From: Eledone cirrhosa
Taxonomy: Eukaryota
DNA: 64,000 nucleotides
NCBI GenBank assembly: GCA_964016885.1
Contig: OZ024747.1
Location: forward strand, 79,918,001 to 79,982,000
Direction: 5' to 3'
Each line of letters starts with the position of its first letter. The first letter of the stretch is position 1. The position numbers and the translations under genes are program-made. A model generated the notes under the pieces. That model saw only the letters and a program-made list of their open reading frames with translations. It was not told the DNA's origin and did not search any database. Shown here one piece after another: positions 9,338 to 14,529 of the stretch.

Positions 9338-9526
9338 TTATTAAAATAACAGATCAAAGTTTAAGCAAAGAATCGGTGCTTTCACCCTTAACGGGATCTT
9401 CTGAAACTTAAACTTTAATCTGTTATTTTAATAAATATTTGCTCTACGGTTCTTATATATTTGATATATATTTATCCTTATCGAGCCTTCTTTGGATTTT
9501 AGTCTTCAAATTTATTATTATTACTA
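9338..9526. mobile_element. TA-flanked island with short inverted arms and a degenerate minus-strand HHR
   Basis: Arms 9338-9365 and 9407-9434; minus strand reads AAGTTT-CAGAAGA-TCCC..GGGT-GAAAGCA..TGCTT-AAACTT. Confidence 0.5.
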
Positions 9527-9715
9527 TATATATATATATATATATATATAAAATAGATTAGCTTTCACCGTATTTTTGACTAAAGAAATTTTAGCCTGAT
9601 AATGGGGTTTAGAACCCTCAGATAAATGGAAAAAGATGAGTATTGACGTACATGGGAGTCGAACCCACATCTTTGGTTATCCAGACCACTGTGCTACCAT
9701 TACACCAATGTGGGT

Positions 9716-9786
9716 GATGTGTTGGTGTAATGGTAGCACAGAGGTCTGGATAACCAAAGATGTGGGTTCGACTCCCATGTACGTCA
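9716..9786 (+). tRNA. tRNA-like cloverleaf (apparent GGA anticodon, short variable loop), probably element-borne
   Basis: Acceptor GATGTGT/GTACGTC+A, D arm GTGT-AATGGTA-GCAC, loop CT-GGA-TA, T arm GTGGG-TTCGACT-CCCAT, TTTTT at 9796-9800; anticodon stem imperfect. Confidence 0.6.
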
Positions 9787-9864
9787 ATACTCATCTTTTT
9801 CCATTTATCTGAGGGTTCTAAACCCCATTATCAGGCTAAAACTTCTTTAGTCAAAAATACGAAC

Positions 9865-9955
9865 AGAAGTCCGACGAGCTTTTGATTCCTGATTCTGACC
9901 AGATCGATACTGATCGAACCTTGAGCTGATCAATAGCGAAACGCGCGTCACTTCT
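9865..9955 (+). ncRNA. Type I hammerhead ribozyme, long stem II, palindromic stem III
   Basis: AGAAGT-CCGACGA-GCTTTTGAT..ATCAATAGC-GAAAC-GCGC-GTC-ACTTCT; U4>C core variant. Confidence 0.8.
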
Positions 9956-10414
9956 CAATAAGTAATGAAGACCTAACAAATCGTCCTATTTATAATTAAT
10001 TAATATATATATATATATATATATATATATATATATATATATATATATATATGAAGCAATAGGTGAAACCTCGAGGTCACTGTCACCTTTCGTTTGAGAA
10101 AATATATATTACACTCTCTTCACATGTATTGGGTGGTCACCCGGTTTATGTTTGAATGTTTTAAGTATACTAGTATGTAATACAACCACTTTATTGTGTA
10201 TATCAAACTCCATTATTCCTCGAAGACCGACAGAAACATGGCTGCGGTAACGATAGCAACAGAGATGGCGGTGCTTCGAATGGCCGCAGCTAGCGAGCTT
10301 ACATCAGTAAAATAATTCAAAGAGATATGTATATGTATGTATATATATATATATATATATATATATATATATATATATATATATATATATATATATATAT
10401 ATATATATATATAT

Positions 10415-10662
10415 ATATTTCGATTCTGAATTTGTTTAGCAAGATTCTTTATATGAAAACGTGTGTTGAAACCGATATTGTTATACTTTGGGAGGGTCAT
10501 GTTGCCAATAAGAAACACACGCACCAGTTGCTTTCACTTCAATTTATTATAATAAATTTATAAATTTAGGAATTTATAAATTTATCATAATAAATTGAAG
10601 TGAAAGCAACTGATGCGTGTGTTTCTTATTGGCAACAAGACCCTGCCAAAGTATAACAATAT
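10415..10662. mobile_element. Miniature palindromic copy of the termini of the PLE at 32734-40648
   Basis: Both arms match the pLTR tail (GAAGTGAAAGCAACTG..ATGACCCTCCCAAAGTATAACAATAT); flanked by (TA)n. Confidence 0.9.
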
Positions 10663-10690
10663 ATATATATATATATATATATATATATAA

Positions 10691-10838
10691 CGAAGGAATT
10701 GTGGTAAGGAACCAGATGGACCATAACGCACCAGTACTCAATACTTAGGGTAGTAGAGTGGGTAATAGGAAGAGGTATGACCCCGACGGCAGAGCTCAAG
10801 CCGTTTCGACGGCTATGTCTGGACATACCTTTTCCTAT
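10691..10838 (-). mobile_element. Second copy of the 4332-4538 island family
   Basis: CGAAGGAA.TGTGGTAAGGAACCAG..GACGGCAGAGCTCAAGCCGTTTCGACGGCTAT shared; short inverted end. Confidence 0.75.
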
Positions 10839-10894
10839 ATATATATATATATATATATATATATATATATATATATATATATATATATATATAT

Positions 10895-11211
10895 AATATA
10901 TAAGATCAAAAGATGGTTAAAAGAGTTCCATGTATTTTATTATGCGCATTTCAAAAACAAATATCATCATGCGATGACATTTGCGTTTTCGTCAGATAAA
11001 ATAGGGAAACATGATATGAAGGTGAAAAAACACTTGTGAATAGTGCAGTTTTAAATCAACATATTGAAATACGCATAATAAAATACATGGAACTCTTTTA
11101 ACCATCTTTTGATCTTATATATTATTTATACTCCAGTCCTACAAACTGTAGAGTGGTACTTATCCGATATCTGCATTGCTTTATTGTACTACAATAAAAC
11201 TCACCTCCTAC
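10895..11211. mobile_element. Asymmetric palindromic HHR island (family H1)
   Basis: Left arm is minus-sense with an HHR; the right arm restarts at TGAAAT.CGCATAATAAAAT and extends into an ACTCCAGTCCTAC..CCTCCTAC tail. Confidence 0.8.
10933..11003 (-). ncRNA. Type I hammerhead ribozyme
   Basis: Minus: TATTTTAT-CTGACGA-long stem II-GAAAT-GCGC-ATA-ATAAAATA. Confidence 0.8.
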
Positions 11212-11280
11212 ATATATATATATATATATATATATATATATATAATATAAGATCAAAAGATGGTTAAAGGAGTTCCATAT

Positions 11281-11349
11281 ATTTTATTATGCGCATTTCA
11301 AAAACAAACATCATCATGCAATAATATTTGTGTTTTCATCAGATAAAAC
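11281..11349 (-). ncRNA. Type I hammerhead ribozyme (mirror copy)
   Basis: Reverse complement of 11470-11538. Confidence 0.8.
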
Positions 11350-11469
11350 AGGAGAACATGATATGAAGGCTAAAAAACACTTGTGGATAGTGCAGTTTTA
11401 AATCAACATATGTTGATTTAAAACTGCACTATCCACAAGTGTTTTTTAGCCTTCATATCATGTTCTCCT

Positions 11470-11538
11470 GTTTTATCTGATGAAAACACAAATATTATTG
11501 CATGATGATGTTTGTTTTTGAAATGCGCATAATAAAAT
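11470..11538 (+). ncRNA. Type I hammerhead ribozyme
   Basis: GTTTTAT-CTGATGA-AAACACAAATATTAT..ATGATGTTTGTTTTT-GAAAT-GCGC-ATA-ATAAAAT. Confidence 0.8.
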
Positions 11539-11749
11539 ATATGGAACTCCTTTAACCATCTTTTGATCTTATATTATGCATACTCCAGTCCTACAAACTG
11601 TAGAGTGCTTCTTATCCGATATCTGCATTGCTTTATTGTACTACAATAAAACTCACCTCCTACATATATATATTTATATATATATATATAAAGTATATAT
11701 ATATATACAATATATTAACAAAAGGAAACTATATTTATAAAACCATATT

Positions 11750-11815
11750 TATTTTATTATACATATTTCAAGGGCCACCAAGGCAAATTATGGTGCGCTT
11801 TCATCAGATAAAATA
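11750..11815 (-). ncRNA. Type I hammerhead ribozyme (mirror copy)
   Basis: Reverse complement of 11972-12037. Confidence 0.75.
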
Positions 11816-11971
11816 CAATACAGATTAGTTTTATAAATAAATATTGACATACTCTGAAAAAAAGACAACCTTAACGGTTGGAGCTTTCACTATCCAGGAG
11901 GTTCCAACCGTTGAGGTTGTCTTTTTTTTTCAGGGTATGTCAATATTTATTTATAAAATTAATCTGTATTG

Positions 11972-12037
11972 TATTTTATCTGATGAAAGCGCACCATAAT
12001 TTGCCTTGGTGGCCCTTGAAATATGTATAATAAAATA
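11972..12037 (+). ncRNA. Type I hammerhead ribozyme
   Basis: TATTTTAT-CTGATGA-AAG.CACCA..TGGTG.CTT-GAAAT-ATGT-ATA-ATAAAATA. Confidence 0.75.
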
Positions 12038-12336
12038 AATATGGTTTTATAAATATAGTTTCCATTTGTTAATATATTGTATATTTACTCCAATAAATTG
12101 TTGAGTGCTTTATATCAGTTATAAAAATATTTTTAAGCTTGTATCCCAACAAATTAAATATAACCTCTGCATATATATATATATATATATATATATATGT
12201 ATGTATATTTTGATCATGCTTTATTTTTATTTTTATCTTTATTTTTTTATTTTTTCATTTGCACCGTTTCCTTTCGCTATATATCTCTCCACCACTCCCC
12301 TACACACCCTTTGAACTCTGTTCCCACACACTTCTC

Positions 12337-12368
12337 GCCCGAGGAAGGGCTTATGCCCGAAACGTCGT
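12337..12368 (+). ncRNA. Minimal PLE-type hammerhead motif
   Basis: CCGAGGA-A-GGGC-TTAT-GCCC-GAAACGTC; stem I weak; AATAAA downstream; island 12200-12458 is TA-flanked. Confidence 0.55.
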
Positions 12369-14529
12369 CCCCCACCAACGCCCCACTCTCCAGAGCGTGA
12401 AATTAATAAACATTCGTTGTACTGCCTCTCTGTTTTGTCCCTGTTCAAATTTTTCCATTATATATATATATATATATATATATATATATATATATATATA
12501 TATATATATATATATATATATATATATATATATATATATATATATATATATATATATATACATATATATATATGTATATTTTCAATTTGTCAAGCTGTCT
12601 AAACGTATGTTATTACTCTAAGGCCCGACCTTATTGAGTGCTTTGCTGCTCATTCCTAGTTGTAGGTCGTTTTGTTTGGCCACAGCCAAAGCTTCAATTT
12701 TACTAAGCTTCCACTTGTATACACACACGCACACACACACACACACACACACACACACACACACACACACACACACACACACACACACACACACACACAC
12801 ACACACATACACACACACACACACACACACACGCACACACACACACACACACACACACACACACACACACACACACGCGCACACACACACACACGCGCGC
12901 ACATATATATATTATATATATATATGGTTGTCAAGCATGAAATTTGTAGAAATTTATAGAAAAAAAAAGAAATTTATACAAATTTCATACTTGACGACCC
13001 ACTATACTATATATATATAGATAGATAAATAGATATGTGTGTGTGTGTATGTATATAATTTGTGTGTGCGTGTGTATGTGTGTGTGTGTGTGTGTATCCA
13101 TATAATATATGTGTATTAGTATATTGCATGCCCGATAACTATTTTTGAATTTTATACTTAAAATATAATTAACTTTCTGTTCTCTTATAAGACATTGTGT
13201 GTGTGTGTGTGTATTTCCATACAAACACACAAACACACACACACTCACACACACACTCACACACACACACGCAGACGCACACACACAGAGACACACACAC
13301 ATACACACACATACAGACACACATACACACAAACAAACACACACACACACATATACGCCTAAATACTCGCACACACACAAACACATACACAGACACACTC
13401 ACACACACAAACACACAATCACACACACGTACGCGCCTAAATATTCGCACACATATACACATGCATATGTATTTTAGGAGGTCTGCTGAACCCTTCACAT
13501 ATTAAAGTAGTCACGGTGTATAAATATGATGAAAATCCAAAGCAGACGACAACGTCTAAACTGTATAAACTGTATTTATATAAGCGGCTGTTTAACTTCA
13601 GTTATTTTCAAGCTTTAGCTTTTGTGACGGTTGATAAAGTAATATAAGGATATGCATCAGTTAATCTGTATGGAAGACAGGAGAGAGAGATTTACATTGA
13701 ATTGGTCGATCGAATAATAATATAGAAGGGATATATCAACGTTAATTCACCAAATAAATATAAAAGTGTGTCGTGTGGTATGTATGTGTGTGTATATATA
13801 TATATATATATATATACACATATAAATCTCTCTCTCTCTCCCTATATATATATATATATATATATATATATATATATATATATATATATATATATATATA
13901 TATATATATAGACATATAGATACACACACACGCACTCACACACATATATATATATATATATACACATATAAATCTCTCTCTCTCTCCATATATATATATA
14001 TATATATATATATATATACATACACATATCTATCTATCTCTCTCTCTCTCTATATATATATATATATATATTTATATAAATATATATTTATATATATATA
14101 TATGTTACGCACACATATTTTATGTCTGCGTGTGTATGTATGTATATGTATATATATATGTATATATATATATATGTATATATATGTGTGTATGTGTGTG
14201 TGTGTGTGTGTGTGTGTCTGTGTGTGTGTGTCTGTGTGTGTGTGTGTGTGTGTGTGTGTGTGTGTGTGTATGTGTGTGTGTGTGCGTATGCGTGTGCGTG
14301 TGTGTGTGTATGTGTGTATTGGAGAGTTGTGAATAACTTCAAAGGTTGTGTCTAGGCGGGTGGAGGTCGTTTGTAACGGATGGCTCTTGTATTTTCTATT
14401 GACAACTATTTCTAATTTCTTCATTTTGGTTATTTCAAACAGAGAATCGCATCGTTAGATTTCCACCCTCTATTATCATTATTGCTGCTGTTCTGGATGC
14501 TGTCGTTGTTATTATTATTGATATTATAC

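Follow-up and report, generated by a model that had tools for sequence, protein, structure and literature searches.

Which elements left a string of short islands, several of them palindromic and bearing hammerhead ribozyme (HHR) motifs, between (TA)n runs in the genome of Eledone cirrhosa? The cluster lies in the window, that is, the whole stretch of 64,000 nucleotides that was analysed. A preliminary description had read it as one TA tract repeatedly targeted by non-coding, ribozyme-bearing units that are mobilized by Penelope-like retrotransposons (Penelope-like elements, PLEs) and may form a large unrecognized class. Our answer, to which we assign a probability of roughly 0.85, is that eight segments are likely failed, 5'-truncated PLE insertions at TA, and that a ninth, ORF-less and tRNA-like, likely moved in trans. 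The nine islands first reported were confirmed, each of 146-463 bp and with (TA)n between them:

9339..9524, minus strand: I1, with a long arm (-) at about 9339-9423, a short arm (+) at 9407-9433 and a tail at 9434-9524
9551-10002: I2, a composite island of two families, I2a (9551-9861) and I2b (9862-10002)
10053..10324, unstranded: I3, an older repeat plus unmatched DNA
10419..10658, minus strand: I4, with a tail at 10419-10474 and arms at 10475-10566 and 10571-10662
10690..10835, minus strand: I5, a Hydra-type PLE 3' stub plus tail
10896..11211, unstranded: I6, with a long arm (-) carrying an HHR, a short arm (+) at 11064-11120 and a tail to 11211
11245..11663, unstranded: I7, with arms at 11245-11409 and 11410-11574 and a tail at 11575-11663
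11708..12170, unstranded: I8, a palindromic stub
12209..12458, plus strand: I9, a PLE 3' stub without inverted copy
9252-9338, 9525-9550, 10003-10052, 10340-10418 and 10659-10689: (TA)n spacers, first half
10836-10895, 11212-11244, 11664-11707, 12171-12198 and 12459-12560: (TA)n spacers, second half

The spacers within 9252..12560 are PLE target sites. Inverted repeats, put at six or more in the preliminary description, number six (I1, I2a, I4, I6, I7 and I8), and none was found in I3, I5 or I9. The islands had been taken for several unrelated families, which is only partly right: I6 and I7 belong to a single family, to which I8 is related. A single (TA)n tract for the whole cluster could not be demonstrated; I3 consists of an old repeat of about 75% identity and unmatched DNA. 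Its first ~150 bp show 71-85% identity to copies elsewhere, the remainder has no match, and neither a palindrome nor an HHR was found in it. I3 is older background DNA and not part of the PLE stub set.

That the islands form a class of their own, non-coding and ribozyme-bearing, is for the most part wrong or unsupported: longer copies of I1, I2b, I4, I5, I6/7, I8 and I9 continue into PLE coding sequence for RT and/or GIY-YIG. Of the ten segments, eight correspond in sequence to the 3' ends of PLEs that carry ORFs, six with Hydra-clade motifs and two with a Neptune/Nematis-type linker, and this homology, at island-to-parent identities of 82-99%, bears out the PLE-type nature proposed for the cluster. 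I7, a near-perfect palindrome, is 98-99% identical to the ends of L031, which has an 821-aa open frame, and the I6/7 parents L031, L034 and L037 carry frames of 775-821 aa beside the I6/7 end. The corresponding values are 92-99% for I1 (ends of the ORF-bearing L265, with DKT and CxCX5C motifs), 93-95% for I5 (L261, whose full HHR core is TTGAAAA), 92-98% for I8 (L146, with RT/GIY-YIG fragments; the parents L146/L147 are known from fragments only), 82-83% for I9 (both pLTRs of L256; it also lies beside the RT frames of L257 and L259) and 91-95% for I4, compared with the pLTRs of an element at 36-40.6 kb of the window:

36164..40647, plus strand: I4 parent, full length, with an HHR-bearing pLTR (36164-36204), a 1,034-aa frame (37043-40147) and a second pLTR
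32738-35691: inverted truncated copy of the I4 parent family

The I4 stub is cut downstream of its HHR, so it holds no whole one. In the parent of I2b (L380/L367) a decayed GIY-YIG region lies collinear some 1.3 kb upstream, seen in only two of 23 loci, and no ORF was found on extending three I2b loci. I2b, which adjoins I2a directly, appears to be what is left of the 3' end of an older PLE family that retains traces of a Hydra-like endonuclease. Parent frames are intact for I4 and I6/7, broken for I1, I5, I8 and I9, and represented by a decayed endonuclease only for I2b. The Hydra motifs DKT, CxCX5C and CxxC..E..N..CxH all occur in L031 and L265, and all except DKT in the broken frames of L261 and L146, while a CX2-5CxxC linker precedes GIY-YIG in the window frame, L256, L257 and L259. 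The Hydra and Neptune/Nematis assignments would follow from these motifs, which fit either Neptune or Nematis in the second case. Pfam gave one weak RVT_1 match among six parent proteins and a solved-structure search with the parent frames gave no meaningful match; Atlas look-alikes of the L031 frame scored 0.96-0.98, and among them several carry GIY-YIG and one RVT_1. Copy numbers, counted as exact word matches in the genome, are 17,363 for I7 (30-mer), 9,873 for I1 (30-mer), 17,578 for I5 (24-mer), 957 for I8 (34-mer) and 4,978 for I9.

The manner of insertion was followed in 30 loci per family, the first matches on contig C1; these samples are not independent, because some loci are two arms of one insertion. 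A TA run lay within 200 nt of the 3' probe in 28 of 30 loci for I6/7, 27 each for I8 and I5, 23 for I1, 24 for I2a and all 30 for I9, against a background of 17%, in agreement with the claim that TA tracts were targeted repeatedly. The TA distances are bimodally distributed in I6/7, I8, I5 and I2a, and each family has two fixed 3' ends, I9 having one. An inverted copy was present in 16 (I6/7), 14 (I8), 18 (I5), seven (I1) and none (I9) of the 30 loci. Direct-arm lengths form a continuum from <30 to >1,500 nt, and 12 short I6/7 palindromes had nine different junctions when inspected by eye. Truncation shows hot spots, with 13 of 30 I6/7 arms ending at 103-118 nt and 27 of 30 I5 arms within 26 nt, which could conceal a self-propagating short subfamily. 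The combination of an inverted 5'-truncated copy and a one-sided tail was thus found in I6/7, I8, I5 and I1; a head-to-head inverted truncated copy, a one-sided tail and a (TA)n target are published PLE hallmarks (PMC8557442).

Both strands of AT-rich DNA are nicked by the GIY-YIG endonuclease of PLEs, whose RT starts at two internal sites, producing the tail (PMC11167929). In the cluster, RT would frequently stop after 50-350 nt at family-specific hot spots, and the second nick would likely prime a second short cDNA, or the first cDNA would fold back, giving a head-to-head palindrome. The TA left on both sides would likely re-expand and be targeted again, with stubs on a string as the outcome.

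The tRNA-like segment comprises the following features:

9551..9861, unstranded: I2a, a head-to-head pair of an ORF-less ~260-bp tRNA-like unit, with arms at 9569-9708 and 9722-9861
9716..9786, plus strand: tRNA-like domain of I2a, with a partial mirror copy at 9652-9707 (minus strand)
15794..15934, plus strand: second partial I2a copy in the window

I2a has 1,357 exact 29-mer matches. Its tRNA domain scores 41.4 and 37.4 bits in Rfam (gathering score 29), ARAGORN reads the L054 copy as tRNA-Ser(GGA)-like, and a tRNA-derived head is present in 20 of 22 loci. Genome-wide, I2a occurs as 1- to 28-mers of ORF-less head-to-tail units in the 170-400 nt range, with arrays of 26, 17 and 28 units. A satellite or a conventional tRNA-SINE, with arrays grown by unequal exchange and TA flanks due to chance or a LINE, would account for the tRNA head and for arrays that are old, with a unit-to-unit similarity of about 85% and a degree of duplication inside them, and would fit the failure to find a PLE partner. 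It would not account for the two fixed 3' ends at TA (24 of 30 loci), for the inverted truncated copy upstream in 23 of 30, for a 26-mer that is itself bordered by TA on either side and has a tail and an inverted 5' part, or for 5' ends at any phase of a circularly permuted unit. Nor was a tRNA head at the start combined with a LINE-type or poly(A) tail found, and we consider such an origin unlikely. I2a is likely a non-autonomous PLE passenger, as its PLE insertion signature suggests.

A PLE frame was sought on the 5' side of I2a in 30 + 16 loci and three arrays, with probes from only 2-4 PLE proteins, and none was found. The best of 33 comparisons with possible sequence partners reached z 2.3; a likeness to the I5 HHR stem II noticed by eye was rejected as not significant on the same figures. 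Apart from a weak extension of the match into a neighbouring tRNA-like repeat, non-family profile matches were absent. In 1.5 kb of array Rfam finds only tRNA and no HHR, type II and III HHRs were not seen by eye, and of 11 multimer loci scanned with a relaxed type I descriptor, two, both of one subfamily, yielded four antisense-strand matches with a two-change core. The consensus fold is a long leader-trailer helix around the tRNA-like part, with double changes in 0 of 52 pairs. Units are 95.7% identical within loci and 91.0% between them; 24 of 47 have their nearest neighbour in their own locus, and 12 of 18 loci lack a private shared variant, figures that fit rolling-circle copying and tandem read-through alike. 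I2a would likely supply the PLE RT start signal and be copied as 1- to 28-mers from circular or tandem RNA. We found no description of it in the literature searched, and give even odds that it is PLE-mobilized and not yet described, a PLE counterpart of SINEs and of Helenus/Cassandra. The boldest form of this proposal, rolling-circle RT of a unit-length circular RNA made via tRNA-processing enzymes and not a hammerhead, is a long shot.

What, then, is the part of the hammerheads? The motifs located are these:

9357..9409, minus strand: I1 HHR variant, core CAGAAGA, position 4 = A
9865..9955, plus strand: I2b HHR variant, core CCGACGA, position 4 = C, palindromic loop III
about 10780-10824: I5 partial HHR of the U3-A8 type, its 3' half alone being present
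10933-11003, minus strand: I6 HHR, strict type I
11280-11350 (minus) and 11469-11539 (plus): I7 HHRs, strict type I
11750-11815 (minus) and 11972-12037 (plus): I8 HHRs, strict type I
about 12337-12368: I9 degenerate minimal HHR, core CCGAGGA, 2-bp stem I, read by eye

The strict type I descriptor finds five HHRs (one in I6, two each in I7 and I8), where 300 dinucleotide shuffles give a mean of 0.01 and a maximum of 1; a relaxed scan adds the two with altered position 4, in I1 and I2b. Of the eight HHRs originally counted, five thus stand with exact cores, and the total is reached only when three variants are included. The I1 core recurs in 54 of 63 copies of its family and the I2b core in 28 of 41, and CTGANGA was read by eye in 26 of 30 listed I9-family copies. 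Four of the six palindromes carry an HHR, I2a and I4 being without. Over the cluster Rfam reports no hammerhead at threshold, its sole hammerhead row being at 9920-9959 (17.4 bits, E 1.6). Cluster hairpins also appear there as sub-threshold miRNA precursors; a miRNA identity was rejected, as these matches fall below the gathering score and reflect long hairpins. Enrichment beside TA and covariation across copies, on which the preliminary description had staked its proposal, were both observed: in 270 kb of evenly picked genome, 16 of 18 strict HHRs have a TA run no more than 300 bp away, where 36% would be expected, and stem II shows 63 double-change cells against 25.6 shuffled, a level reached in 0 of 500 shuffles, although the sequences are related and the figures are hence not a probability. 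Sequence and covariation place a type I HHR in the pLTR of the PLE families.

Such HHRs, far above chance, covarying and adjoining TA, in stubs that far outnumber full copies and cluster in length, could indicate that the palindromes are distinct retrozyme-like units that self-cleave, circularize and reinsert. However, the stubs are continuous with RT ORFs, their junctions vary from locus to locus, and neither I4 nor I5 holds an entire HHR. In I1, I6, I7 and I8 the HHRs are single or on opposite strands, never two or more in tandem on the same strand, and with one HHR per strand no unit is excisable. Folding gives -281 and -285 kcal/mol for plain hairpins versus about -184 with HHR stem I enforced; by this prediction the hammerheads of I7 and I8 are trapped inside an extended hairpin, a sequestration of some 100 kcal/mol. 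Opposite-strand HHRs and predicted burial in dsRNA make it unlikely that the palindromes are retrozymes, and HHR mutants had no effect on insertion in vitro (PMC11167929). For these islands the retrozyme-like reading is already largely refuted and must be held very improbable; we infer that the pLTR carries its hammerheads along as passengers.

MITEs or foldback DNA elements inserting at TA would likewise be short, non-coding inverted repeats with TA flanks and >10^4 copies, but just one of the arms bears the tail, neither arm lengths nor junctions are constant where fixed lengths and symmetric terminal inverted repeats belong, long copies code for RT/GIY-YIG and not for transposase, and I2a forms head-to-tail multimers with random 5' ends; this reading is refuted for families with PLE parents and has only a slight chance overall. 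Fold-back chimeras assembled around microsatellites are hardly credible: the I7 arms are almost perfectly complementary and no short-read contig spans 9710-10002, yet elsewhere the two arms have diverged by several percent, the tail is found on one side, numerous loci spread over many contigs repeat this architecture, and the I2a and I2b families are deep in short-read contigs, possibly from the same sample.

The cluster itself is a clear case of known PLE behaviour, and the tRNA-like unit matters more. It shows that PLE stubs can be the source of abundant hairpins that look like MITEs or miRNAs in animal genomes rich in TA; scaled up from 18 strict HHRs in 270 kb, the whole genome would hold roughly 2 x 10^5. 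Whether PLEs depend on hammerhead cleavage can be tested directly in the families that amplified with non-canonical HHR cores. If the proposal for I2a is true, the unit would extend to PLEs the rule of a small-RNA-derived parasite per retrotransposon class, define a minimal cis signal for PLE mobilization and test whether multimers need a hammerhead.

Among known systems, the putative parents of I1, I5, I6/7 and I8 resemble the Hydra-clade EN+ PLEs of Craig et al. 2021 (PMC8557442) in DKT, the CxCX5C linker, CxxC/CxH around E/N, the HHR in the pLTR, (TA)n insertion, the inverted 5'-truncated copy and the one-sided tail, and I2b does so partly. They differ in tails of ~80-90 nt, against 30-40 nt there, in single words with >10^4 copies and in two families amplified with a non-canonical HHR position 4. 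The parents of I4 and I9 resemble Neptune (or Nematis) EN+ PLEs in the CX2-5CxxC linker, the pLTR with HHR and the microsatellite target. The minimal PLE hammerheads of Cervera and de la Pena 2014 (PMC4209133), in the portion available, share the palindromic short helix III, the extra base after A9 and the U3-A8 and 2-bp helix I variants, and opposite-strand HHR pairs 100-700 bp apart are there assigned to truncated PLEs; the family-fixed cores CAGANGA and CCGANGA were not found in that portion.

Metazoan non-LTR retrozymes (PMC7229834; bioRxiv 10.64898/2026.07.22.740005) are like I2a in their ~260 bp size class, lack of ORFs, head-to-tail multimers and proposed PLE mobilization, but have a type I HHR per unit, whereas in I2a none was found and a tRNA-like domain is present instead; they are also tandem, whereas the HHR palindromes of the cluster are head-to-head. 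Non-autonomous Chlamys elements such as MRC1, according to the accessible part of PMC8557442, are PLE dependants with pLTRs and multicopy head-to-tail insertions, as is proposed for I2a. They come from an alga and have a 3' end generally like that of an autonomous family, with no tRNA part mentioned in that part of the paper, whereas I2a has so far shown no 3' similarity to an autonomous family. Helenus TRIMs (PMC10886601) and tRNA-SINEs are, like I2a, non-autonomous with a tRNA-derived part, but Helenus depends on LTR elements (PBS, PPT, 4-5-bp TSD) and SINEs on LINEs, whereas I2a bears the insertion signature of PLEs.

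The cluster consists, as first described, of nine islands of 146-463 bp (I1 to I9) with (TA)n runs between them at 9339-12458, and six of these are inverted repeats (I1, I2a, I4, I6, I7 and I8). I2 comprises two families joined at 9861/9862, I2a (9551-9861) and I2b (9862-10002), while I3 (10053-10324) is an older repeat plus DNA without matches, in which neither a palindrome nor a hammerhead motif (HHR) was found. The eight HHRs originally reported were recovered in part. Five matched a strict type I descriptor (one in I6, two each in I7 and I8; 300 shuffles averaged 0.01), two more, with position 4 changed, came from a relaxed scan in I1 and I2b, and the remaining one is a degenerate minimal motif in I9, read by eye. 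I5 holds only the 3' half of an HHR. An Rfam search of the cluster gave no hammerhead reaching threshold, and the only domain above gathering score was tRNA-like, in I2. As a whole, the preliminary description is partly confirmed. The I1 and I2b families have both been amplified with the non-canonical position 4 (core CAGANGA in 54 of 63 I1 copies, CCGANGA in 28 of 41 I2b copies); either this variant of the core is active or the ribozyme can be dispensed with.

We looked for the same features in 27 evenly picked stretches of 10 kb (270 kb). The strict descriptor found 18 HHRs, some of them two arms of a single insertion, against 0-2 in ten shuffles. The enrichment expected near TA tracts was evident, as 16 of the 18 have a TA run no farther than 300 bp away, compared with 36% of non-TA positions. 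Covariation across copies was also seen, with none of 500 shuffles, a control inflated by relatedness, reaching the observed score. Among 30 aligned HHRs of the I6, I7 and I8 type, 93.5% of cells were paired and stem II showed double changes at eight of nine pairs. The sample held 37 island-family segments, some locally clustered in threes to fives; the nine islands in 3.1 kb are therefore dense, yet ordinary in kind by the standards of this genome. Exact island words were counted 17,363 times genome-wide for I6/7, 17,578 for I5, 9,873 for I1, 4,978 for I9, 1,357 for I2a and 957 for I8.

The islands had been interpreted as non-coding units mobilised by Penelope-like elements (PLEs), possibly an unrecognised class. 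This interpretation is partly supported: the islands are of PLE type, and the HHR palindromes add new members to PLE clades that are already known. Long copies of the island families continue into PLE coding sequence. The islands share 82-99% identity with the ends of these parents.

Islands and their parents (window positions; L numbers are loci elsewhere in the genome)
I1, 9339-9524: parent L265
I4, 10419-10658: parent family at 32738-40647, with an inverted truncated copy, terminal repeats (pLTRs) and an open 1,034-aa frame at 37043-40147
I5, 10690-10835: parent L261
I6/7, one family, 10896-11211 and 11245-11663: parents L031, L034 and L037, frames of 775-821 aa
I8, 11708-12170: parents L146 and L147, coding fragments
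I9, 12209-12458: parents L256, L257 and L259

Following the motif definitions in the accessible text of PMC8557442, Hydra-clade motifs were found in the parents of I1, I5, I6/7 and I8 and a CX2-5CxxC linker in those of I4 and I9. The I4 parent is a young PLE with a Neptune/Nematis-type linker and pLTR HHRs at 32992, 36164 and 40450. I2b, a PLE 3' stub, retains a decayed endonuclease region in two of 23 loci. GIY-YIG and RT clusters were among the atlas look-alikes of the L031 frame, and Pfam gave a single weak RT match for six parent proteins. Other elements were observed in the window:

20599 (+): further HHR family adjoining a TA run, a compact U3-A8 variant present in L157 too
26932-27000 (-): further HHR family adjoining a TA run, stem III long
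51118-51163 (+): further HHR family adjoining a TA run
20876-22033 (-): PLE coding fragment with Hydra-like CxCX5C linker; HHR at 21011-21048 (-) within this region
60606-62458 (+): PLE coding fragment with Hydra-like CxCX5C linker
17079-19681 (+) and 57213-59034 (+): broken non-LTR retrotransposon frames, by eye presumably L1/Tx1-like and R2/R4-like
40645-43679 and 46272-49305: two (TA)n arrays, both degenerate and roughly 3 kb long

The insertion signature was read from 30 loci per family, the first 30 matches on one contig. A TA run starts no more than 200 nt from the 3' probe at 23-30 of the 30, against a 17% background, and in I6/7, I8, I5 and I2a the distances form two tight groups, one end bearing a tail (a one-sided extension beyond the arm) and the other without it. 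An upstream inverted copy accompanied 7-23 of the 30 loci in each family except I9, which unlike the others had none in 30; I9-family loci L256, L257 and L259 are direct pLTR-ORF-pLTR units. Direct arms extend from a few bases to more than 1.5 kb, with hot spots, and inversion junctions vary from locus to locus, favouring independent events over a single propagating unit. In the I5 family (L086-L115) the direct arm ends within 26 nt of the probe in 27 of 30 loci, inside HHR domain II, possibly where RT stalled at an RNA structure.

PMC8557442 describes frequent 5' truncation, an adjoining inverted copy, a tail on one side only and (TA)n targeting as typical of PLEs. According to PMC11167929, the PLE protein nicks both strands of AT-rich DNA, its RT starts at a pair of internal sites between which the tail lies, and insertion in vitro does not require HHR cleavage. 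Junction palindromes have been interpreted as self-priming (PMC3846280, in part), and minimal HHR pairs on opposite strands 100-700 bp apart were already reported as probably truncated PLEs (PMC4209133, in part). The palindromes would arise from early RT stops and second-strand priming or fold-back, and the TA remaining on either side would re-expand and be targeted again. In I7 and I8 the two HHRs sit on opposite strands and read-through RNA is predicted to fold into a hairpin whose stability exceeds that of the fold with HHR stem I by about 100 kcal/mol, which would make unit-length RNA an unlikely product.

Most of the interest of this locus rests with I2a, a tandem unit of about 260 bp with a tRNA-like domain (called by ARAGORN in 20 of 22 loci, with varying anticodon) and at least three subfamilies. 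Copies are found singly, as 2- to 4-mers and in arrays of 26, 17 and 28 units, and units of the same insertion have a common subfamily haplotype. The 26-mer has its 5' part inverted, a tail, and TA at each end. No PLE frame was found adjoining the unit at its 5' side in 30 plus 16 loci and three arrays (two to four protein probes), no ribozyme family match was found, and comparison with 11 PLE-type ends gave no significant likeness. The insertion signature suggests that I2a would be mobilised in trans. Literature searches aimed at a tRNA-derived PLE passenger gave no description of one in the open-access text consulted (bioRxiv 10.64898/2026.07.22.740005, PMC7229834, PMC10886601, PMC13282606 and PMC8490949 among it); the unit may already stand in some repeat library as a SINE or satellite. 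I2a is likely a new variant of non-autonomous PLE passenger. It works similarly to a non-LTR retrozyme but does not qualify as one, no HHR having been found in it, and it works similarly to the MRC1-type non-autonomous PLE.
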